From: Candidatus Peregrinibacteria bacterium
GTDB taxonomy: Bacteria > Patescibacteriota > Gracilibacteria > UBA1369
Assembly: GCA_963708185.1 (NCBI GenBank)
Contig: OY970195.1
Span: forward strand, 640,001 to 704,000
Reading direction: 5' to 3'
Length of the DNA: 64,000 nt
Shown here: piece after piece, positions 53,397-64,000 of the stretch
How positions within the stretch are numbered: the stretch's first letter is position 1
Layout: the number at the start of each line of letters is the position of its first letter
The notes under the pieces: generated by a model
Database searches by the model: none
The model's input: the letters and a program-made list of their open reading frames with translations, nothing else
What the model was told of the DNA's origin: nothing
Made by a program: the position numbers and the translations under genes

Positions 53397-55091
53397 ATGG
53401 CGGGAGAACAGCCGAATCAGGCTCCACAATCAGCTCCTTCTGATGTCGAAAAACAGTTCGGCATCGATCAGATCCAAGATCAGGAAAAACGCGAAATCGT
53501 CAAAACGTATTTCGAGAAGACGCTCACTCCCGAACAACGCGAGAGTCTTGTTCATGAAAAATCGAAAACCGAACTTTCCAAATTGAAACAGGAAATCCAG
53601 TCGCTCAATGAACGCCACGCGACGGCCGAAGAGTTCGTCCAGCAGATTATCAGCACGATGCAGAAAAATGTGCTCGAGCGCGACATGACCGAGGGGTACC
53701 TCGACGTCAACGGCGAAGAGCCGAGTTACGTCGACTACTTTTTGTCTCTGACGGGAACGAGTGATAATTTCTGCCCGCCGGGCATGGAAAAGTACAAGGG
53801 TAAAGGGTTCTCCATGGACTGGGACGATTATCAGACCGGAGAATACTGCGTCAACAAAGTTAAGTCTGTCATCAGGTCCGTTCCCGCAAACGTCAAACGC
53901 GAGATCCGCCACCAGTTCGCCAAAGATTTTATCGTAGCCTATTCCGCAGCCATCGACAGCTTTGACGCGCCTTTTGAAAATTTCGACATGGGAGAAGTTA
54001 CCGATCCGGAACAAAAATTGATAAAAGAGCAGCCTTACGTGATGAGTTTCAATGCATGGATTGCCCAGAAAGGGATGAAGCTCGAAGATGTGACGTACCA
54101 GTACAGCAAGCTTGATACCAAGGCTATTCTGGACACCAAATCCCGTCTTGAAACCGATAAAAACAGCCTTTCGGCCTTCCCGAAATCACAGCAGGAATAC
54201 TATTCGCAACAGTTGAAGAACATCGAAGGGTTCGCTCTCAACAATCCTTCTCAGGCACAGGAACAATTGGGAACCCTGGAAAAGGAAATGGCTTCCTATA
54301 AAACTTTTTTGGCATTTTCCGAAAACATCAAGGGGCTCCGCGATTCATATAACGAAAAGAAAGGAAAATATTCCGATTTTGACACGAAATTCGACGGGCA
54401 GATCAACGATCTCCAGAAAAAATACGATGATCTTACAAAACAGCTCGAAGCTGAAAAAGACCCTCAAAAACGCCTCGTTCTTATGGATAACATCAGCAAT
54501 CTTACCAAGGCCAGGGACGAGATCGATTTTAACATGACCAAGGCTTCCGAAGATCTTGAAAAAAAGAAAGAAGAGGCTCAAAAAACCGCAGACGAAACGG
54601 CTGCTGCCAATCCGGAAAACGCCGAAGAAGAAGATAAGCCCGGTTTTCTGGACAGCGCGGTGCTCGGCGATTCAAAACTGGCGAAGATCGTCGTGGATAT
54701 GGCCAAAAACGTTCCGCTCATCGGAGGATTTATTTTGAGCGCGTTCCTGGCGCCGAGCACGCTGAAGAAACTTGGCATCAACGCCCCGACCGGACTCGGC
54801 GATTTCCTGAAAGCCAACGGCACGCCGAAAACTCCCGAACAGTTGAAAGAAACCGAAACGAAAGCAAAAAAACTCCTGAAGGAACAGTTCAAGATCGAAA
54901 AAGTTGAAGAACTGGATGCCCTCTCAAAAATGGAGGTCAAAGATTTCCTCAAGAAAAAGCCCGATGATTTTGACCAGGAACGCTATGACAAATTTGTGAC
55001 CGCCCTCAAAAAGAACGGGGCAAACGATTCGACCGACAAGAAGGTATTTGAGTATGTTCTGAGCAAAATCGATGACTGGAAATCCTCGTAA
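53397..55091 (+). CDS. Hypothetical coiled-coil protein with C-proximal hydrophobic segment
   Basis: 564-aa K/E/Q-rich ORF; VPLIGGFILSAFLA segment. Confidence 0.85.
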   Translation: MAGEQPNQAPQSAPSDVEKQFGIDQIQDQEKREIVKTYFEKTLTPEQRESLVHEKSKTELSKLKQEIQSLNERHATAEEFVQQIISTMQKNVLERDMTEGYLDVNGEEPSYVDYFLSLTGTSDNFCPPGMEKYKGKGFSMDWDDYQTGEYCVNKVKSVIRSVPANVKREIRHQFAKDFIVAYSAAIDSFDAPFENFDMGEVTDPEQKLIKEQPYVMSFNAWIAQKGMKLEDVTYQYSKLDTKAILDTKSRLETDKNSLSAFPKSQQEYYSQQLKNIEGFALNNPSQAQEQLGTLEKEMASYKTFLAFSENIKGLRDSYNEKKGKYSDFDTKFDGQINDLQKKYDDLTKQLEAEKDPQKRLVLMDNISNLTKARDEIDFNMTKASEDLEKKKEEAQKTADETAAANPENAEEEDKPGFLDSAVLGDSKLAKIVVDMAKNVPLIGGFILSAFLAPSTLKKLGINAPTGLGDFLKANGTPKTPEQLKETETKAKKLLKEQFKIEKVEELDALSKMEVKDFLKKKPDDFDQERYDKFVTALKKNGANDSTDKKVFEYVLSKIDDWKSS

Positions 55092-55163
55092 TCTCCTTTC
55101 CGCCCGGTTTGCGCAAATCGACGGAATGCGGTATAATTATATAAGATCCATAAGCCGAAAACC

Positions 55164-55793
55164 ATGGCTGATGACATCAAAATTAGCGGCATGAACAATC
55201 CCCAAACTCAAGGTGGACAAAATTCGGGCGCTCAGCAACCGGCCGGCGACAAACTGAAACCGGTTATTGACCTGCGTGACGCCGACAAAAAAGCCACACC
55301 GACTCCGGGAAGCTCGACTCCGGCAGCCGCTCAACCGGCCGCTGCGGCAAGTGCCCAGGGCGTTCCTTCCGCAAAACGAACCAACGCGATCCTGCTCTCC
55401 GAAGACGAAGAATCGATGCAGGCGCCGGTCCAGGAAAAATATTCCATCCCGGCACTGGTGAAGGAAAAATTTCCCGACCTTATCCAGCTCATCAAGGAGA
55501 CCGAGTCGATGAACGACGAGGAACGCGACTACTGGTTCCAGATTCTCCCGATCATGACCGAGGAACAGATCAAAAAATTCCGCGACATTCTGGTGAACGA
55601 AAAAGAACAGCTTTCCAATCTTGACCAGGATTACGAAAACGAGCTGACGAAACTCAATGAGAAACACATGATCGAATGGAAAGAGTTCGAATCGAAGGAA
55701 AAACGCAAGACGCTCACGGCTGCAGAAAAAGTTTCGCAACAGAAGGAACAGAGCGAAGAGGAGGCTTTGCTGAAACGCCTGAGCCAGGTCTAG
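55164..55793 (+). CDS. Conserved hypothetical helical protein (paralog of 39307)
   Basis: Disordered N-terminus plus LI..TESM.DEER.YW...LP.M..EQI domain. Confidence 0.85.
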   Translation: MADDIKISGMNNPQTQGGQNSGAQQPAGDKLKPVIDLRDADKKATPTPGSSTPAAAQPAAAASAQGVPSAKRTNAILLSEDEESMQAPVQEKYSIPALVKEKFPDLIQLIKETESMNDEERDYWFQILPIMTEEQIKKFRDILVNEKEQLSNLDQDYENELTKLNEKHMIEWKEFESKEKRKTLTAAEKVSQQKEQSEEEALLKRLSQV

Positions 55794-55821
55794 TCTTCAA
55801 TCCGTATGGAAACCGTGCGGT

Positions 55822-56706
55822 CTAGTTGCCGCTCCCCGTCGGTCTGGCAAAGACGATGAGGCGTTTTAAGTTTGTGCCGACCGGGGTACAGGTAATGAGC
55901 GTGAGCCGGTTTTCTCCCGCCTGCGCCAACACGTCGACCTGGTCGGGAGTGACGACTTCCGTTTTGTAGACCTGATAATAGTATTTTTTCTGATTGTGGT
56001 AGACGATGACGGTATCGCCGATGACGACTTCGTGCAGTAAGGCGAAAACGTCCTTGAATCTTCCGGGATCCCAGCTGAAATATGAACTGTGTCCGGTGAT
56101 GACGACATTGCCGTTATCTCCCGGTTCTGCCGTTCCCGGATAGTGGACGACTCCGTCCTGGAGCGCCTGCTGGATGTCTTTTTCCAGGGCACCCCAATCG
56201 CGCTTGATGAGGTTTTCGGTGCTTACTTTCACGATGGGAACGTTTCTGTTGATGCGGGGAATGATGACGCGGTCGTCTGGCGGAGCCACCTCAAGATTCA
56301 GATATGGAATCTGTTTTTTGCTTTGATCCGATGTCGCTGTGATCGGCAGCGGTTGCTGGGTCACTCCCGCGGGATGGGTCAGGTTCTGGACTACGGGATT
56401 GGCTTGGATCGTCCCGCGAAGCTGGTTGAGTTTGTCCACGAACAGCGTGCTGTAGGCGTTGTAGTTGATGATGAAAAACAGTACCATAAAAATGAGCGCC
56501 GAGGTCGCCAGCCATTCCAGTGTGTTCCAGATTTTCGTACCGACGGAAACGCCGGTCGTTTTTTTCTGGAGCGGAGCAGGCTCTTCCTTGGTACTTTTCT
56601 TTTGGGCGAAAGCAGGGAGTTTCCCATTGTTTTTGAGCACTTCATTGGCGCCATGAGGAACAGCGACGTTCAACCGGAAAGCTTCGTCCTGCTGTTGTTT
56701 CGTCAC
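55822..56706 (-). CDS. Sortase (class E/D-like); N-terminus possibly extends to 56825 across a frameshift
   Basis: TM anchor; HYPGTAEPG.NGNVVITGHSS, LTLITCTP.GT..KR catalytic H/C/R. Confidence 0.93.
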   Translation of the reverse strand: MTKQQQDEAFRLNVAVPHGANEVLKNNGKLPAFAQKKSTKEEPAPLQKKTTGVSVGTKIWNTLEWLATSALIFMVLFFIINYNAYSTLFVDKLNQLRGTIQANPVVQNLTHPAGVTQQPLPITATSDQSKKQIPYLNLEVAPPDDRVIIPRINRNVPIVKVSTENLIKRDWGALEKDIQQALQDGVVHYPGTAEPGDNGNVVITGHSSYFSWDPGRFKDVFALLHEVVIGDTVIVYHNQKKYYYQVYKTEVVTPDQVDVLAQAGENRLTLITCTPVGTNLKRLIVFARPTGSGN

Positions 56707-56885: not shown

Positions 56886-58025
56886 TTACCGATCAATGAT
56901 TCCGCCTCCGGCAATTTTTTCGCCATCGTAAAAAACGATAGATTGCCCCGGGGTCACGGCACGCAGCGCAAGGTCAAAATCCACGTCAACAACGCCGCTC
57001 CTGCGCAGTACGGGGCGAATCTTTACCGGCTGGAGCAGCGAACGGTATCTAATCCGGGCGGTGTAGTTTCGTTCACCATCGGGATTTACGCCCTCAATGA
57101 AATTCAGAGAGTGCGCTCTGCATTTTTTGACCAATAGATCCTTGGCTTTCCCCACAATGAGGGCGTTCTTTTTTTTATCGAGCTTCACCACGTACCATGG
57201 ATTTCCTTCCTGATCGGGCATACCCTTGATGCCGCCGATTTCCAGACCTTTGCGCTGACCGATGGTGTAGATGGGAAGCCCTTTATGGGTTCCGATGATC
57301 TTGCCTTCGGCGGTCATGATTGGGCCGGGTTCAAATTTCTTATTTTCAAGATATCGCTTGAGGAAAGGGCCATGGTTTCCTTCGGGAAAAAAGCAGAGAT
57401 TCTGGCTTTCCTTTTGTTCGTTCACCTCCGGAATGCCGTACTTTTTTGCCATGGCCCGCACTTCGGTTTTGGTGAAATCTCCGAGAGGGAAAAGAATATG
57501 TTTCAGTTTCTCCTGGGTCAGCACGTAGAGGAAATAACTCTGATCCTTGGTCTTGTCTTTGGCCGTCCAGAGTTCATAGCGTTCGCCGGATTTCTCTTTC
57601 ACGGTCACTTTTCTGGCATAGTGGCCGGTGGCAACGTAATCCGCGCCGAGTTCCTTCATTTTCTGGAGAAAAAGTCCGAATTTCACGTTGCGGTTACATT
57701 CGACGCAGGGGTTCGGTGTCAGGCCTTTGCCGTATTCCTCAACGAAAAAATCGACGACTTCATGCTTGAAAGCCTCCTCGAAGTTCAACACGTAAAAAGG
57801 AATACCGATCTTCGCCGCCAGCTGGCGGGTCCTGGTCAGGCCTTCCAGGGTGCAGCATTTGTTTTGAGGGAATTTGAGACTGTCTTCTTCGCTAAAAACC
57901 GTCGGATCGGTCCAGAATTTCAAGTGAATCCCTATGACGTCGTACCCCTGTTCTTTCAGGAGACAGGCCGTGACCGATGAGTCCACGCCTCCTGACATTC
58001 CCACTAAAACTTTCTTCTTGGTCAT
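56886..58025 (-). CDS. mnmA: tRNA 2-thiouridylase MnmA
   Basis: GMSGGVDSS, TPNPC..CN..KF, ATGHY, KDQSYFL, TIGQRKGL, TPGQ. Confidence 0.98.
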   Translation of the reverse strand: MTKKKVLVGMSGGVDSSVTACLLKEQGYDVIGIHLKFWTDPTVFSEEDSLKFPQNKCCTLEGLTRTRQLAAKIGIPFYVLNFEEAFKHEVVDFFVEEYGKGLTPNPCVECNRNVKFGLFLQKMKELGADYVATGHYARKVTVKEKSGERYELWTAKDKTKDQSYFLYVLTQEKLKHILFPLGDFTKTEVRAMAKKYGIPEVNEQKESQNLCFFPEGNHGPFLKRYLENKKFEPGPIMTAEGKIIGTHKGLPIYTIGQRKGLEIGGIKGMPDQEGNPWYVVKLDKKKNALIVGKAKDLLVKKCRAHSLNFIEGVNPDGERNYTARIRYRSLLQPVKIRPVLRRSGVVDVDFDLALRAVTPGQSIVFYDGEKIAGGGIIDR

Positions 58026-58107
58026 CGTTCTGCCAAAAAAATTGACTTTGCTATGTTTTTATGCCATACTTCACGCACTCTCGCAAGGGGTATTTTAGGG
58101 AAAGCTT

Positions 58108-60498
58108 ATGGAACAGAAACAAGCTCTCATTACCGCCCTCCGCAACGACTATGGACTCGACATTGACGCGATGGTCCATGACGTGGAGCGATACGCTCCA
58201 CATTTTAACGAAAAAAAATTCCGCGAAGCCTTCTATTTTGCCGCACGTGCCCATGAGGGCCAGTTCCGCAAAGAAAACAAGCCTTACATCGTCCATCCCG
58301 TCGAAACGGTCAGGATTTTAATTTCACTTCACGCCGACGAGGACACGGTCATTGCGGCGTTCATGCACGACGTTCCCGAAGACACTCCCCACACCATTGA
58401 TGAGATTGAAAAGAAGTTCGGCAAAAAAATCGCTTTTCTCGTCAACGGGGTGACCAAACTCGCCAAGGTCCATTACCGCAACGACATGGCGACGCGCCAG
58501 GTCGAATCGCTCAAAAAACTTTTCATCTATACGGCGGAGGATCCCCGCATTATTTTGATCAAACTCGCGGACAGGCTTCATAACATGCGAACGCTCCAGT
58601 ACATCGACAAGCCCGAAAAACGCATGCGCATCGCCCGCGAGACTCTTGAAATTTTCGTGCCGGTGGCCAACCTGCTCGGCATCGAAGAACTGAAATCCGA
58701 GCTTGAGGATCTGTGCTTCCGCTATTTGATGCCGGACGAGTATGAAAGCATTTACGACCGCATGCAACGAAGCCGGGAGAAGAACAAAAAAGTCATGGAC
58801 GAAACGCTCGACCTCGTGCATCGTGAACTTGAAAAGGCTCACGTCAAAGCCGTACTTTACGGTCGCCAGAAAAATCTCTACGGCATTTACAAAAAAATCG
58901 TTTCCCAGGGAAAGCGCATGGACGAATTTGATGATTTCATCGCTTTGCGCATTCTGGTGTCGGAACGCGAGGACTGTTACAAGGTCCTCGGCATCCTGCA
59001 TACTCTTTTCAAACCAAAACCGGGTAAATTCAAGGATTACATCGCCGTTCCGAAAGTGAACGGTTACCAGAGTCTCCACACCACCGTGTTCGGTTTGAAG
59101 GGTGTTATCACAGAATTCCAGATCCGCACCCATCAAATGCATCTTGAAGCGGAATACGGAACTGCCGCCAGATATTTTGAACAGCAGGGAAAGAATACCG
59201 AAACCGACGACCGGCGATCGGGGTGGATGGAGAAGATCCGCGACATGGAAAAATCGCAGCGTCCGCAGGATTCTTTCATCGACACGCTCAAGGGAGATAT
59301 TCTCCACGATAGAATTTTCGTCTTCACTCCGCGAGGCGAACCGATTGATCTTCCCCAGGACGCCACGTGCGTTGATTTCGCCTATGCCATCCATACCCAG
59401 GTCGGGCACCGGGCGCTGAAGGCCGATGTCAACGGAGAAATCGTCCCCATTACCAGCACGCTCAATACCGGAGACACCGTCCGCATCATCACTTCGGACC
59501 GCCAGAAAGGTCCGAATCGCGAATGGCTTTTCTTCGCCAAGACCAACAGCGCAAAAAACAAGATCCGCGAATATTTCCAGAAAGAGTCCAAGGAATCAAA
59601 AATCCAGCTTGGCCGGCAGCTTCTCCAGAAAGAGTACGACCGAGCGGGTCTCGGAATCGTGCGTCCGATTCCCCAGAAGAAAATCGATGATTTTGCCAAA
59701 AAATTCACTGAACTCCGTCTGAAAAATTTTGACGACGTGTTGACGTCGATCGGTGAGGGGGCGCTGAGCACTCTCGACCTGATGCACCTGCTTTTCCCCG
59801 TGCGGGACGCCATCAACGGTTCCCAGCATTCCGTGCTGGAATTTCTGCGATTAAAGCCCCAGATGCAAAAAACCCACGTCAACGTCAAAGTCAGTTTTAA
59901 CCAGGATCACCCGGGCCAGCTGCAGAGTCTTCTCAACATCATTTCCAAATTCAACATCAACATTTTAAAAACTGAGGGTTATCTTTCGCTTTTCCGCCGG
60001 GTGTTTTTGTGTAAATTCGTGCTGGAAATTGAAAATTTCCAGCAGCTTTCGGAGCTTTTTGAAAATTTTGAACACGTCCCGGGCGTCCAGCACGTCGAAA
60101 GACAGTTCTGGAAGCGGAAGCTGTCGTTCCTTTTGGTGAGCATGCTCAGCTTTTCGGTGTGGGTCGTCCATCCGTTCATCATGAACCTTGCCAAAAGCGA
60201 ACTGATCCTGAACCCCAACGCCCTGCTCCCAACGCTTTTCCAGTACTTCAGCTTTTTGATGCTCTTCCTCGGAGTTTTTCTCCTGAAGTCGCTCAGCCGG
60301 CGCAGTTTCCCTGAACTTCGCGAAACGACCGCCTACTGGATCATGTCGTTTCTCTTAACGGCCTTCTCGACCGTCACCTTTTTCGGCGAAATTTATTTTC
60401 TGAAGTTAAGTTTCAACTGGGTGTTCATTTTCGGTATGATACTGTTGATCGTGGCCTATCAGATCGCGGAATACATTTACGCGAATGATCGAAGCTGA
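58108..60498 (+). CDS. Long RelA/SpoT homolog with C-terminal transmembrane domain
   Basis: HD (MHDVPED, KLADRLHNMRT), synthetase (KDYI..PK.NGYQSLHT, EFQIRT), TGS, ACT-like, then ~4 hydrophobic helices. Confidence 0.93.
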   Translation: MEQKQALITALRNDYGLDIDAMVHDVERYAPHFNEKKFREAFYFAARAHEGQFRKENKPYIVHPVETVRILISLHADEDTVIAAFMHDVPEDTPHTIDEIEKKFGKKIAFLVNGVTKLAKVHYRNDMATRQVESLKKLFIYTAEDPRIILIKLADRLHNMRTLQYIDKPEKRMRIARETLEIFVPVANLLGIEELKSELEDLCFRYLMPDEYESIYDRMQRSREKNKKVMDETLDLVHRELEKAHVKAVLYGRQKNLYGIYKKIVSQGKRMDEFDDFIALRILVSEREDCYKVLGILHTLFKPKPGKFKDYIAVPKVNGYQSLHTTVFGLKGVITEFQIRTHQMHLEAEYGTAARYFEQQGKNTETDDRRSGWMEKIRDMEKSQRPQDSFIDTLKGDILHDRIFVFTPRGEPIDLPQDATCVDFAYAIHTQVGHRALKADVNGEIVPITSTLNTGDTVRIITSDRQKGPNREWLFFAKTNSAKNKIREYFQKESKESKIQLGRQLLQKEYDRAGLGIVRPIPQKKIDDFAKKFTELRLKNFDDVLTSIGEGALSTLDLMHLLFPVRDAINGSQHSVLEFLRLKPQMQKTHVNVKVSFNQDHPGQLQSLLNIISKFNINILKTEGYLSLFRRVFLCKFVLEIENFQQLSELFENFEHVPGVQHVERQFWKRKLSFLLVSMLSFSVWVVHPFIMNLAKSELILNPNALLPTLFQYFSFLMLFLGVFLLKSLSRRSFPELRETTAYWIMSFLLTAFSTVTFFGEIYFLKLSFNWVFIFGMILLIVAYQIAEYIYANDRS

Positions 60499-60527: not shown

Positions 60528-61520
60528 ATGATTCGGACTTCCAAGCTGTCGGGTTATAGCGCCGGACTTCTCGCTTCTTTTTTCTGGGGAATCCATTCCG
60601 TCATCATCCGGTCGCTTACCGAACAAGGCATCAGCCCTTACCTCATCGCGGGTCTTAGGTTATACATCGGGACCATCACCCTGTTTCTCATCATTGCCCT
60701 GCAGAGGATTTTTACCTTTAAGAAAGCACGCCAAGAAAAGGTAAAATTCAAGTTCAACCAATTCTTCTGGATCGCGGCGATAAGCCTTGGCATTAATTTC
60801 CTTTTTTTCCAGAGCGGACTTGAGTATACCCTGGCTTCGGACGCGAACCTCATCCAGAATTTCTCCCCGGTCGCGGTGCTCATCATCAGCACGATCTTTT
60901 TAACGCATCGCATTAAAGAGATCGCGCCGAACAAGGTTTTCTGGACCAAAGTCTTCCAGATCGTGCTTGTCGGTTCGATCGGCGCTTCGCTGGTTCTCGT
61001 CAATGATTCCAACAACAAGATCGTGAGCGACGACCTGAAGTTTCTCGGTGATTTCCTCGAATTCGCGGGAATGATCTTCTTCTCCATTTTCGTCATTTGC
61101 AGCAGCGAATATTCAAAACTCGAAAAGAAAATTCCAAGTCTCTACGTGACGATGGTAACGTTGGCGGTTGCCGCCATCCCCGTCACCCTCTTCGTTCCTT
61201 TTGGTGACCTCGTGAAACTCACGGCCGAACAGTGGGGCCTGATTATTTTCATCGGTGTCTTTTCCACCGGCGTAGCGTACTGGCTCTGGCACGTCGCCTC
61301 CAAGCGTCTGAACGTCATTCCTCTCACCCTGAACCTTGTCTATATCGGAATTATCACGGTTTTGAGCGAGGTTCTTTTCCTGCATATTGCCCTGGACTGG
61401 AAATTTGTTTTTGGAGGTATCTTAATGATCATCGCTTCAGTTGCGGCCGAAATCATCAATCTGAAAGCCAAAAACTACCGCCGGCAGCGCATCGACGGAG
61501 AGCTGGGACCGTTGTCCTGA
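60528..61520 (+). CDS. DMT/EamA transporter
   Basis: ~10 TM in two EamA repeats (FWG, LR, GLEYT.AS.A, STGVAYWLW). Confidence 0.92.
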   Translation: MIRTSKLSGYSAGLLASFFWGIHSVIIRSLTEQGISPYLIAGLRLYIGTITLFLIIALQRIFTFKKARQEKVKFKFNQFFWIAAISLGINFLFFQSGLEYTLASDANLIQNFSPVAVLIISTIFLTHRIKEIAPNKVFWTKVFQIVLVGSIGASLVLVNDSNNKIVSDDLKFLGDFLEFAGMIFFSIFVICSSEYSKLEKKIPSLYVTMVTLAVAAIPVTLFVPFGDLVKLTAEQWGLIIFIGVFSTGVAYWLWHVASKRLNVIPLTLNLVYIGIITVLSEVLFLHIALDWKFVFGGILMIIASVAAEIINLKAKNYRRQRIDGELGPLS

Positions 61521-61648: not shown

Positions 61649-63604
61649 ATGAGCTCTTACCGACAAACTATGGGAGTTGAAGTGTCACAACCAGATTCTC
61701 AAGGTGAAACAACAATCCCGCGTTCCGCGAAATTGACGGCAACGTCTCCGAAAATTTTAAGAATGCCCGAAGGGAGGAAGGATCTGCAAAAACTTGTCAG
61801 GAAAAGTAACCCTGAAAGGGTGAAAAAGACGGTTACCAGAAATGTTGAAGGCAGGAGAAGGTCCACCCACGGCATGGTTCAGGAATGCATGCCCAAAGAG
61901 TTGTTTTTGGGAGGGAGAGTCCGTGTGGGAACATCCTCGGTCAGTTTTGCCATACCCAATAAACCGAGCACGCTCAGTAGCGCAACAAGCACGCCAATTC
62001 CCGGAAGCGGAACCATGGAGGGAGGAAGCGGACAAGGAGGAGGGAACGGCGGCGACGGCAATGGGAAGAAGAAAAAACCGTCGGGAGAACATCCGGCCGT
62101 GACCGAAGACCTTGAAGGAAAACTTTTACCGAGCCCCGATGTCGAGGAAGCCAAACAGCTCCTCGCAAAAAACCATAATATTTTCGTCGAAGCGGTCCAT
62201 TTACATCCGACCACGGACAACCAGCAGGAATACCGCAAAAGACTTTTTAATAAACCAGAGTTCCTGCAGACGATCCATGAACTCCAACAGCGCCGAGATC
62301 TGAAAGACGTGGAGACGCTGGATTCGGCTGAACGGGTCAGAAAATACTATGAACTCCAGGCAGCCGCCGACGCTTATAAAGCCGGCGACATTCCCGAAGA
62401 AAATCTCGGAGCGATGTTCGGTCTTGAAGGTGATGATCTCATGGACCTTTTCTGCTCGCTCGAAGGCGACGATATCGTGAGAAAGAAAAGCGCCGAGTTT
62501 GCCATCGGCAACGGAGAGATCAGCCGTACACTGCGCGACGCCGTCAACAAATACATCGGCCTTGCCTACATGCGCTACGGAGCTCCGGAAAAAGGCGCCA
62601 TCCCACGACGCATCTGGAACGCCATGTACACCAACGGTTTTGCAGCTGCCAAAGGTCCGCGCAGCATGGATCCAAACATCACCGGCATTGATTTCGTGGG
62701 CAAATTCGTCGACAAGGCCAGCAAGAAACTCATCAACGGCATTCAGGCCGACATCTGTTCCCCTCCCGAAGACTTTTTCGAAAAAATGTGGAAGGCCGAA
62801 TACGGCCTGGAACCGAACTCCCTTGATTTCATTTTCATGAACCTGGCGCTCGACCGCCTCAGCGACATCCACGCCACGCTCAAAATCATGAAACTCCTGG
62901 CTAAAACTGACGGATCCACCCAGTTCATGTTCGGATTTTACGCCCCGTTTTCCCCGGAAACGATCAGTTTCTCCAAGAACGACAACATTCCCGAATTCGA
63001 CTGTTTCGATCCCGCCAACGATTTCCGCAGCCGATGGATGAACCGCGACCGCGCCGAAACGATCTACCAGATCGTCCGAGATTTGAATATGATGTATGGC
63101 TTCAACACCAAACGCATCGCCGAACATGAATACGAGGTGTACAGCGCCCACTGCATCGCGGAACCCGCCGGCGTGCTGCGCAAAGACCCCAAGTACGCAT
63201 TTCTCCGCACTTACGATTTCCGCGACAGCGAGCTCAACGAACGCCGCGACGCGGTGTTCAGCGGAAAGATTGCCGACGAAGACATGGTCGGATTCCCGGA
63301 ACGAGAAAACATCATCCTCATCGCCGGCAACATTACGCTTCCCGAAGAAGGCAGCGTCTACGGCAACATCGAGGTCACGGATAAAAAACGAGGACAGGGA
63401 CAGCGTTTGATCATTGAGGATCCCAAAGATCCAAAATACGCCTTCTTGCGCGACTTTAACTTCGGCAAAAAGAGACTGAACAATCTGAGAGACCAGATTT
63501 TCGAAGGTAACCAGCCAGGCCGCATTCCTTACCGCCAACGGATGAAAGCGCAAATGGCCGCTCAACGGAAAGCATACCTGAAAAACCTCAAAAAGACCGC
63601 CTAG
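61649..63604 (+). CDS. Hypothetical protein, possible degenerate SAM-methyltransferase-like domain
   Basis: 651-aa ORF; GIDF...QADI...PNSLDFIFMNLALD...L..MK.L.K.DG weakly resembles a class I MTase core. Confidence 0.7.
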   Translation: MSSYRQTMGVEVSQPDSQGETTIPRSAKLTATSPKILRMPEGRKDLQKLVRKSNPERVKKTVTRNVEGRRRSTHGMVQECMPKELFLGGRVRVGTSSVSFAIPNKPSTLSSATSTPIPGSGTMEGGSGQGGGNGGDGNGKKKKPSGEHPAVTEDLEGKLLPSPDVEEAKQLLAKNHNIFVEAVHLHPTTDNQQEYRKRLFNKPEFLQTIHELQQRRDLKDVETLDSAERVRKYYELQAAADAYKAGDIPEENLGAMFGLEGDDLMDLFCSLEGDDIVRKKSAEFAIGNGEISRTLRDAVNKYIGLAYMRYGAPEKGAIPRRIWNAMYTNGFAAAKGPRSMDPNITGIDFVGKFVDKASKKLINGIQADICSPPEDFFEKMWKAEYGLEPNSLDFIFMNLALDRLSDIHATLKIMKLLAKTDGSTQFMFGFYAPFSPETISFSKNDNIPEFDCFDPANDFRSRWMNRDRAETIYQIVRDLNMMYGFNTKRIAEHEYEVYSAHCIAEPAGVLRKDPKYAFLRTYDFRDSELNERRDAVFSGKIADEDMVGFPERENIILIAGNITLPEEGSVYGNIEVTDKKRGQGQRLIIEDPKDPKYAFLRDFNFGKKRLNNLRDQIFEGNQPGRIPYRQRMKAQMAAQRKAYLKNLKKTA

Positions 63605-63620
63605 CGAGAAGGCATTTATT

Positions 63621-64000
63621 TCAATCTTTCACCGCTTCCTCGGCTTCCTCAATGGAAAGCTTTCTTTCGTAAAAGGCTTTACCGATAATGGCACCCGATG
63701 CGCCTATTTTCTTGAGCAGTTTGAGCTGTTTGGCTTCTGAAATCCCTCCTGAAACGTAGATTTTGAGATCTTTTCCGGTGATCAAAAACAGACGATCGAC
63801 TTCGTCGTAGTTGGGCTGGATCATCGTTCCCTCGCTGTATTCGTCTTTGTAGACGATCTCTTTCACTCCCATCGGAACGATTTTTTCGGCAAAATCCACG
63901 ACGTCGACAAGGTCTCCGTCGGGTAAAATGCCGTCTCCCACCACGCCGCTGCCTTTGGCCTGAATTTCCACGATGACTTTTCCCGGACCGAACATCCGGA
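63621..64000 (-). CDS. HisA/HisF-like TIM-barrel protein (5' partial)
   Basis: EGTMIQPN, VSGGIS...L, GAIIGKAFYE. Confidence 0.8.
   Translation of the reverse strand, partial: RMFGPGKVIVEIQAKGSGVVGDGILPDGDLVDVVDFAEKIVPMGVKEIVYKDEYSEGTMIQPNYDEVDRLFLITGKDLKIYVSGGISEAKQLKLLKKIGASGAIIGKAFYERKLSIEEAEEAVKD

Follow-up and report, generated by a model that had tools for sequence, protein, structure and literature searches.

A zinc-finger-less long RelA/SpoT homologue with a predicted four-helix membrane tail in Candidatus Peregrinibacteria: a probable SpoT-like (p)ppGpp hydrolase with links to EamA transporters

A stretch of 64,000 nucleotides from a Candidatus Peregrinibacteria bacterium (contig OY970195.1, positions 640,001 to 704,000, referred to as the window) contains, at 58108..60498 on the forward strand, a single open reading frame (ORF) of 796 amino acids (aa) with an ATG start, encoding a long RelA/SpoT homologue (RSH) without a zinc-finger domain (ZFD) and with a predicted four-helix membrane tail. 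Judged by sequence, the protein is a paralogue of Rel in which the ZFD has been lost and the hydrolase site has stayed invariant. It is probably a SpoT-like, ribosome-independent, membrane-tethered (p)ppGpp hydrolase, one partner of a RelA/SpoT-like pair which would have arisen independently in the Peregrinibacteria/Gracilibacteria. By sequence comparison, the four-helix module is the first part of a larger protein, an RSH joined to a drug/metabolite transporter (DMT), which sister lineages have in intact form. In textbooks, long RelA/SpoT enzymes are soluble switches coupled to the ribosome.

The source genome (G000) is a single contig of 1.437 Mb. Pfam located an HD (hydrolase) domain at residues 41-192 (58228..58683; HD_4, E 7.2e-42), a SYNTH domain at residues 252-355 (58861..59172; RelA_SpoT, E 6.3e-34; also aligned to PDB chain 6yxa_A), a TGS domain at residues 403-462 (59314..59493; E 4.5e-20) with His429 present, a helical (AH) domain at residues 478-567 (59539..59808; RelA_AH_RIS, profile positions 5-87 of 185 only) and an ACT/RRM domain at residues 591-665 (59878..60102; ACT_4, E 9.3e-07, 29.9 bits), all on the forward strand. 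No Pfam family was matched by residues 666-796. The long-RSH model TIGR00691 of NCBIfam was passed with 583.9 bits against a cut-off of 499.2, covering profile positions 1-522 of 687, and the equivalog models for SpoT (NF008303, 486.5 against 947) and RelA (NF008124, 372.4 against 728) were not reached. These subfamily models had been proposed as a check in a preliminary description of the locus made from the sequence alone, and they agree with its claim of an HD-SYNTH-TGS-helical-ACT order without zinc finger, which was borne out by Pfam, TIGR00691 and an alignment to PDB chain 8fr8_I. The HD residues, the RxK, D and ExQ residues of SYNTH, the TGS-helical-ACT order and the TIGR00691 score are thus those of a long RSH; the zinc finger/RIS part and a soluble end at the ACT/RRM domain are missing, helices being predicted after the latter. 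The best solved relative was 6yxa_A, which we take to be Rel of B. subtilis (residues 37-560 aligned, E 1.1e-141). An AlphaFold2 model of the protein, made from an alignment of 44 rows, reached a mean pLDDT of 81.8.

At the place of the zinc finger/RIS a short linker without cysteines was found by Pfam/NCBIfam, alignment and AlphaFold2 (residues 568-590, 59809..59877, forward strand). The RelA_AH_RIS match comprises the helical half alone, with the RIS/zinc-finger half unmatched. The stretch between the helical domain and ACT measures 45 residues, against 119 in 8fr8_I, presumably a Rel of the M. smegmatis type. Among the 64 ZFD-less clade members analysed here (24 from the set of relatives and 40 loci from a sample of the class, 61 of the 64 being tailed) this linker is 25 to 59 aa long and contains no Cys in 53 and one Cys in 11, and in the AlphaFold2 model residues 567-586 fall below pLDDT 50. 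The half-matched profile, the shortened gap, the Cys-poor linker and its disorder together indicate that the zinc-finger/RIS domain has been deleted. The AAHWxYK motif which follows SYNTH reads AARYFEQ, as had been noted before, and its Trp is missing in 64 out of 64 clade members. In the part of the study of Takada et al. (Nucleic Acids Research, 2021; PMC7797070) that deals with such deletions, Rel/RelA without the ZFD were no longer activated by A-site tRNA and showed increased hydrolysis. If the present protein behaves like such ZFD/RRM deletions, it should have lost activation by starved ribosomes and deacylated tRNA.

The membrane tail occupies residues 668-795 (60109..60498 including the stop codon, forward strand), as delimited by hydropathy, AlphaFold2 and conservation. 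Kyte-Doolittle hydropathy peaked at residues 674-692, 706-724 and 764-782 and, less strongly, around 741-760; no window in residues 1-650 rose above 1.12. AlphaFold2 placed helices at 668-701, 706-733, 741-765 and 771-795, and a model of the tail alone had a pLDDT of 86.8 and a pTM of 0.73. Three parts do not vary in length in 61 out of 61 tails: the 12 residues before the first transmembrane (TM) helix, that helix (TM1), and the TM2-TM3 loop of 14 residues. On average these tails have 3.7, 3.2 and 3.5 lysines plus arginines in the three segments predicted to be cytoplasmic and 1.1 and 0.4 in the two outer loops, a distribution which fits the positive-inside rule and a topology with both termini in the cytoplasm. 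W685, H688, P689, P735 and E761 are kept in 53-55 of the 61 tails; W685, H688 and P689 lie in the outer part of TM1 and E761 at the outer end of TM3. The cytoplasmic loop SFPELRET (residues 733-740) keeps P735 in 55, R738 in 42 and E736 in 26 of them. The earlier claim of about four TM helices in frame at the C-terminus therefore stands as a prediction, on hydropathy, AlphaFold2 and the charge pattern of the tails.

Searches with the tail returned little by way of known folds or families. Foldseek of the tail model against the PDB gave no match at E≤0.001, the best being the SMR transporter Gdx-Clo (E 0.87). A wide fold search with VIA-align recovered generic helical bundles only (best Z 8.1), and a search of the ESM Atlas with the tail gave no usable match. 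When 21 tails were compared with Pfam at E≤10, scattered weak membrane families were obtained, the best being 7TMR-DISM_7TM (3.3e-4, in 3 of 21).

The fusion is conserved. From 30 relatives searched, 24 orthologues including that of the source genome were extracted; 21 have the tail in frame, down to 34% identity, and three (G020, G023 and G030) stop after ACT at 643-681 aa. Three further relative genomes yielded contig-end pieces only. The tailed orthologues are single open frames of about 770-875 aa, and the 40 further loci from the class sample are all tailed single frames (758-842 aa). A profile built from the 21 tails and searched at E≤1e-3 against 1.84 billion cluster representatives matched 68 proteins, in every one of which the tail is C-terminal. 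All 31 matches of at least 700 aa carry HD_4 and RelA_SpoT. The short matches inspected start inside ACT, carry its last strand and look like contig-end fragments, for which reason a stand-alone tail or TM protein was rejected. A TM part encoded as a separate ORF in relatives, which would have pointed to an artefactual fusion, was looked for among the relatives and not found.

In a sample of 401 genomes from the class, the tail was present in 57: 48 of 65 in the same order and 9 of 336 elsewhere. A search with eight close tails placed the tail-bearing relatives in Candidatus Peregrinibacteria, Peribacteria or Gracilibacteria. The sole match outside the class, in a phylum sample of 401, came from genome G552 (locus L107, contig C85 of 2,662 nt), a bin with 5% contamination, and is better explained as a binning stray than as a true occurrence in another class. 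Some tail copies outside the order are interrupted by TGA under translation table 11, as are the members P0050, P0051, P0052, P0055, P0057, P0059 and P0068 and those of genomes G167, G257, G311, G405 and G416. In the protein database such members contain 3.4-4.4% Trp and 0.1-2.2% Gly (for example NNWYQ for NGYQ), which suggests that TGA-as-Gly genes of other Gracilibacteria lineages were translated there with TGA as Trp. For 58108..60498 an alternative genetic code was rejected: the frame is open under table 11 and the TGA-broken copies belong to other families.

The preliminary description had asked whether the genome holds a second, canonical Rel, and a ZFD-bearing paralogue was indeed found. 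In total the genome contains three HD_4/RelA_SpoT loci: the tailed RSH, a ZFD-bearing long Rel and a 473-aa HD-SYNTH-TGS protein. The ZFD-bearing Rel (contig C1, about 274221-276480; L002, 802-3061) is broken by a frameshift between SYNTH and TGS, in the linker, into two overlapping ORFs: HD-SYNTH has 412 aa, and TGS-AH-ZFD-ACT, which starts from an ATG of its own, has 351 aa. In three relatives of the same genus it is one frame of 752-762 aa; the frameshift could be a real split or an assembly error. The 473-aa paralogue (contig C1, about 1346076-1347497; L001, 817-2238) has a degenerate hydrolase motif and intact synthetase residues, and genes similar to it were also seen in genomes G004 and G014.

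The catalytic residues of these paralogues have decayed in complementary fashion. The hydrolase residues H49, H63, H87, D88, E91, D92, D155, R156 and N159 are present in the tailed protein, and all nine are invariant in the 64 clade members. Of the synthetase residues, R253, K255, D276, Y320, H324, E336 and Q338 are present. Across the clade the catalytic Glu is kept in 50/64, the five residues checked (R253, K255, D276, E336 and Q338) are all kept in 34/64, and one subclade of seven tree rows (support 100) is without synthetase residues altogether. In 17 ZFD-bearing paralogues SYNTH is intact in 16, and the AAHW Trp is likewise kept in 16. Their HD domain is degenerate in all 11 from genomes with a tailed RSH and intact in four of the six from genomes without one; in the genus of the source genome the changes are H49L/F, E91K, D92T/V, R156L and N159D. 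Since both other paralogues are HD-degenerate, the 796-aa protein is the sole RSH of its genome with an intact hydrolase set. From this pattern of decay, a RelA/SpoT-like division of labour appears to have arisen independently in the class. The suggestion that the protein is possibly hydrolase-biased accordingly fits the clade, where HD is always kept and the synthetase decays repeatedly, and cannot be read from the sequence of this member, which keeps all five SYNTH residues.

A maximum-likelihood tree was made from the N-terminal 500 residues (46 rows, quick search, SH-aLRT support only), and a second, under the same settings, from which L062 was dropped after a long-branch flag and to which two EamA-fused proteins were added. 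The ZFD-bearing Rel clade (17 rows, SH-aLRT 97) stood apart from the ZFD-less clade (91, then 82). The tail-less proteins are nested within the latter, and their lack of a tail reads as secondary loss. A further ZFD-less, tail-less RSH of 641 aa (L050, on contig C7 of G020) has an intact hydrolase and a dead synthetase site; it groups near the EamA-fused forms, on a long branch.

Twenty-nine nt past the RSH stop codon lies a gene for an EamA/DMT transporter of 330 aa (60528..61520, forward strand; Pfam EamA, E 6.7e-27). It scored 94.9 bits against a Pfam cut-off of 28.2, in two stretches which recover both repeats, and gave weak NCBIfam matches of the YddG type. The tail proved to resemble this neighbour. 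By hhalign, tails and EamA neighbours were aligned with a probability of 91.5% (E 8.7e-7), tail TM3-4 falling on EamA TM9-10, and a collinear second alignment placed tail TM1-2 on EamA TM1-2. Tail residues W685, H688 and E761 are aligned with W20, H23 and E281, none of which varies among the EamA neighbours. The real alignment scored 49.1; among the controls, the reversed profile reached 11.5 and 40 local shuffles of columns gave 19.0 at most. In an hmmsearch over 2406 six-frame ORFs of the genome, the EamA protein was the best non-self match (1.3e-5, 22.3 bits; next 0.27), as it was by hhalign over 176 multi-TM ORFs (38.6, next 20.6). The reciprocal search returned the RSH as best non-self match, with 17 of 61 tails at E≤1e-3. 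The second EamA paralogue of the genome gave no score against the tail, and the tail of the 796-aa protein itself had no match to Pfam EamA (PF00892) at E≤10. With its likeness limited to TM1-2 and TM9-10, the tail would be a derivative of EamA rather than a member of the family. A complex prediction for the EamA protein (A5) and the tail scored 0.05 against a mark of 0.32, without controls.

In other families of the class the two parts were found in one protein. An RSH, the tail and EamA are joined in P0042 (1102 aa) and in a 1091-aa protein of G384, and the downstream EamA protein of the window shares 33% identity with the corresponding part of P0042. A query of the last 471 aa from the G384 protein matched in 28 of the 401 class genomes, among them, by family, 13/64 in f23, 7/12 in f34, 3/43 in f24 and 1/2 in f31. 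Most of these matches fall in open frames of 1091-1163 aa; in G004 tail and EamA are both covered, across a single stop. For 11 fused loci, the RSH profile covers HD through tail in ten (in L112 the match is only weak beyond the helical domain), and the EamA profile covers the next ~310 aa in all 11 (E 1.9e-16 to 4.9e-75). In the same order, a protein of 943 aa in G019 directly couples an RSH with a complete EamA. Of the 13 EamA-fused forms compared, 12 retain the whole hydrolase set, and all 13 have degenerate synthetase residues and no TGS His429. Given these fused proteins, the RSH and EamA pair of the window is read as a split form, and most of the order seems to have kept the four-helix stub alone. 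Where the position of EamA is known, it lies directly downstream of the RSH in six of six genomes of the relatives sample, that of the window included.

Taken together, these observations suggest the following scheme. Without a ZFD, and with the C-terminus held at the membrane directly after ACT, the enzyme would not be switched on by starved ribosomes in the manner of Rel/RelA. It would serve as the (p)ppGpp hydrolase of the cell; in its own genus some synthesis, weak or conditional, would probably be added. ACT and the membrane module fixed rigidly to it would set the balance between HD and SYNTH. The alarmone would be made by the ZFD-bearing paralogue and the short HD*-SYNTH-TGS paralogue. 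The most speculative part is that a transported metabolite would be reported by the membrane module, by itself or together with the EamA carrier. Control of the enzyme by the transporter module is plausible. Only tentatively can it be proposed that the RSH-4TM-EamA proteins are 'transceptors', in which a DMT carrier or its four-helix remnant reports metabolite occupancy or flux to the (p)ppGpp hydrolase, with the pair in the window as a split machine whose parts still cooperate.

Several points weigh against this scheme. The roles of the catalytic-type residues were presumed from the Rel literature. The 796-aa protein keeps every synthetase residue checked, so a hydrolase bias cannot be read from its own sequence, and on its residues it would be bifunctional. 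The base of the tree has no clear branching order with respect to whether the fused or the short form is ancestral. The four membrane helices are predicted, from hydropathy, charge bias and AlphaFold2. Three lineages without the tail keep an otherwise intact protein, from which it follows that the tail is not needed for catalysis. His429, the TGS histidine with which Rel reads the CCA end of tRNA, is present here and in 44 of the 64 clade members, and the helical domain is retained, so that some contact with tRNA or the ribosome may persist. The likeness between tail and EamA is modest (22 bits; hhalign probability 77-91%), and the EamA parts of P0042 and G019 align with the tail in the same two places, weakly. 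EamA adjoins the RSH in six of 23 loci of the relatives set and one of 40 in the class sample, and 24 of the 31 genomes searched (30 relatives and the source genome) yielded no EamA orthologue at E≤1e-10; with adjacency in 7/63 loci and so few orthologues, EamA cannot be the general input. The linkage to EamA put forward in the preliminary description is therefore real, to the extent that the tail is EamA-like and the same partners are fused into a protein of about 1100 aa elsewhere, and is not general as a gene pair. The host contact suggested there as a possible signal finds no support in these observations.

The observations on the tail have also been set against other explanations. The helices may be the leftover of a lost transporter fusion which holds a housekeeping hydrolase/synthetase at the membrane and carries no signal, with regulation left to ACT ligands or cytoplasmic partners as in SpoT. 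The loss of the tail in three lineages with no other visible damage, the failure to find an EamA orthologue in most of the tail-bearing genomes searched and the resemblance of the tail fold to generic helical bundles only would all agree with such a passive anchor. We nevertheless regard it as unlikely: a mere anchor has no need of W685, H688, P689 and E761, each retained in 53-55 of 61 tails, or of the SFPELRE loop, the lengths of the junction, TM1 and loop 2 are fixed in all tails, and the conserved W, H and E fall on positions that do not vary among the EamA neighbours. Less likely again is a wiring in the opposite direction, in which the RSH part reads or consumes (p)ppGpp to gate a DMT transporter, the enzyme being secondary and the short tailed form a relic. 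A cytoplasmic domain before the carrier is the typical order of regulated carriers, and the fused forms of about 1100 aa combine a dead synthetase and a changed TGS with a complete 10-TM EamA. However, a hydrolase site invariant in 64/64 and intact in 12/13 fused forms argues for catalysis and not mere binding, the order to which the window belongs has usually retained the enzyme without a carrier, and in the source genome no other RSH has an intact hydrolase site.

It is very improbable that the protein is still a sensor of deacylated tRNA which uses TGS and AH, possibly at ribosomes bound to the membrane, and has no need of a ZFD. For such a sensor speak the retention of TGS, AH and ACT, of His429 here and in 44/64, and of the synthetase residues in this protein, together with the ribosome contact still made by Rel/RelA truncations without RRM and ZFD, as given in the relevant part of PMC7797070. 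Against it, the 12-residue junction ties ACT to the membrane, His429 and the synthetase have each disappeared from many members and from 13/13 fused forms, and a ZFD-bearing, synthetase-intact paralogue is available for the role. Finally, a lost stop codon or a misassembly might have joined an RSH gene to a small membrane gene. Nothing was found in favour of such an artefact, whose probability is negligible: the 61 tailed orthologues are all single-frame in independent assemblies over a range of 87% to 34% identity, and no stand-alone tail protein occurs among the 68 profile matches, the short ones inspected being likely contig-end fragments. The comparative data refute it. A SpoT-like, membrane-tethered hydrolase is thus the reading that we prefer.

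In the neighbourhood of the locus, mnmA (tRNA 2-thiouridylase, assigned by Pfam; 56886..58025, reverse strand) is divergent from the RSH gene across a gap of 82 nt. Among the 23 loci for which upstream sequence was available, 19 have it beside the RSH, the three tail-less orthologues included, and this adjacency marks the positional orthology of the RSH. A promoter-like site (TTGACT, 17 nt, CATACT, with TG; 58042..58070, forward strand) was seen 38 nt before the start codon and is a consensus match only. Promoter-like sites in the region are weak as a class (three found, 3.3 expected from shuffles), and at the locus neither the terminator nor the promoter scan rose above shuffle expectation.

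Past the EamA gene lies a 651-aa ORF (61649-63604, forward strand) without a Pfam or NCBIfam family, Gly-rich near residue 125 and with an internal repeat around a 'DPKYAFLR' motif. It is followed by a HisA/HisF-like gene cut by the end of the window (63621-63998, reverse strand). A gene of this family lies convergent downstream of the RSH in five other loci (L014, L024 and L026-L028); in the source genome the EamA gene and the 651-aa ORF sit between the RSH and the HisA/F-like gene, its direct convergent neighbour in other genomes. In L024 a frame of 715 aa joins the HisA/HisF-like gene to a region resembling class II tRNA synthetases. On the other side of mnmA, the region 53397-56706 holds a sortase gene (55822-56706, reverse strand) beside two ORFs without family, of 564 aa (53397-55091) and 209 aa (55164-55793); a sortase gene adjoins the RSH in G027 (L021) too. 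In G010 a gene with an adenylate/guanylate cyclase domain, another nucleotide-signalling enzyme, lies convergent after the tailed RSH (L008, 4181-4954, reverse strand).

Relatives of the protein are annotated merely as 'GTP pyrophosphokinase' in one source, and the literature searched contained no description of a membrane-integral long RSH or of an RSH-EamA fusion. The main texts of two surveys of the RSH superfamily, Atkinson 2011 (PMC3153485) and Jimmy 2020 (PMC7229694), are without the word 'transmembrane'; their supplements, which lie outside this scope, may list such architectures. In the whole clade a membrane module of transporter origin, and in sister lineages an entire transporter, appears to have taken the place of the domain that docks on the ribosome. 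Should the membrane module control the enzyme, membrane transport would be linked directly to alarmone turnover in organisms that depend on imported nutrients. Were the 'transceptor' proposal true, it would amount to a ribosome-independent route from a nutrient at the membrane into the stringent response, in genome-reduced and probably symbiotic bacteria. The fused, split, tail-only and tail-less forms represent a natural deletion series.

Among known systems, SpoT of E. coli and other Beta- and Gammaproteobacteria is the closest in its role. Both are paralogues of a ribosome-dependent synthetase which has lost its hydrolase site, both are the sole intact hydrolase of their genome, with the hydrolase site conserved and the synthetase weak or dispensable in the family, and both presumably are not activated by starved ribosomes. 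The 796-aa protein is not an orthologue of SpoT, however, and stems from an independent duplication inside the Gracilibacteria. SpoT is soluble and keeps the ZFD, whereas the present protein is without ZFD and has four predicted membrane helices. With bifunctional Rel (6yxa_A) it shares collinear HD, SYNTH, TGS and AH domains and the catalytic-type residues of both sites; it differs from Rel by the absent ZFD, the replaced AAHW Trp, the tail after ACT and its placement in a separate clade. The engineered Rel/RelA truncations without ZFD and RRM, as presented in the part of PMC7797070 concerned with them, have the loss of the ZFD in common with this natural protein, which in contrast keeps ACT/RRM, drops the ZFD only and adds a membrane module. 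The EamA/DMT family (for example YddG), finally, is connected to it by the likeness of the tail to TM1-2 and TM9-10 of the neighbouring transporter and by the RSH fusions of sister lineages, but the tail has four helices and not ten, gives no Pfam EamA match and is unlike the other EamA paralogue of the genome.

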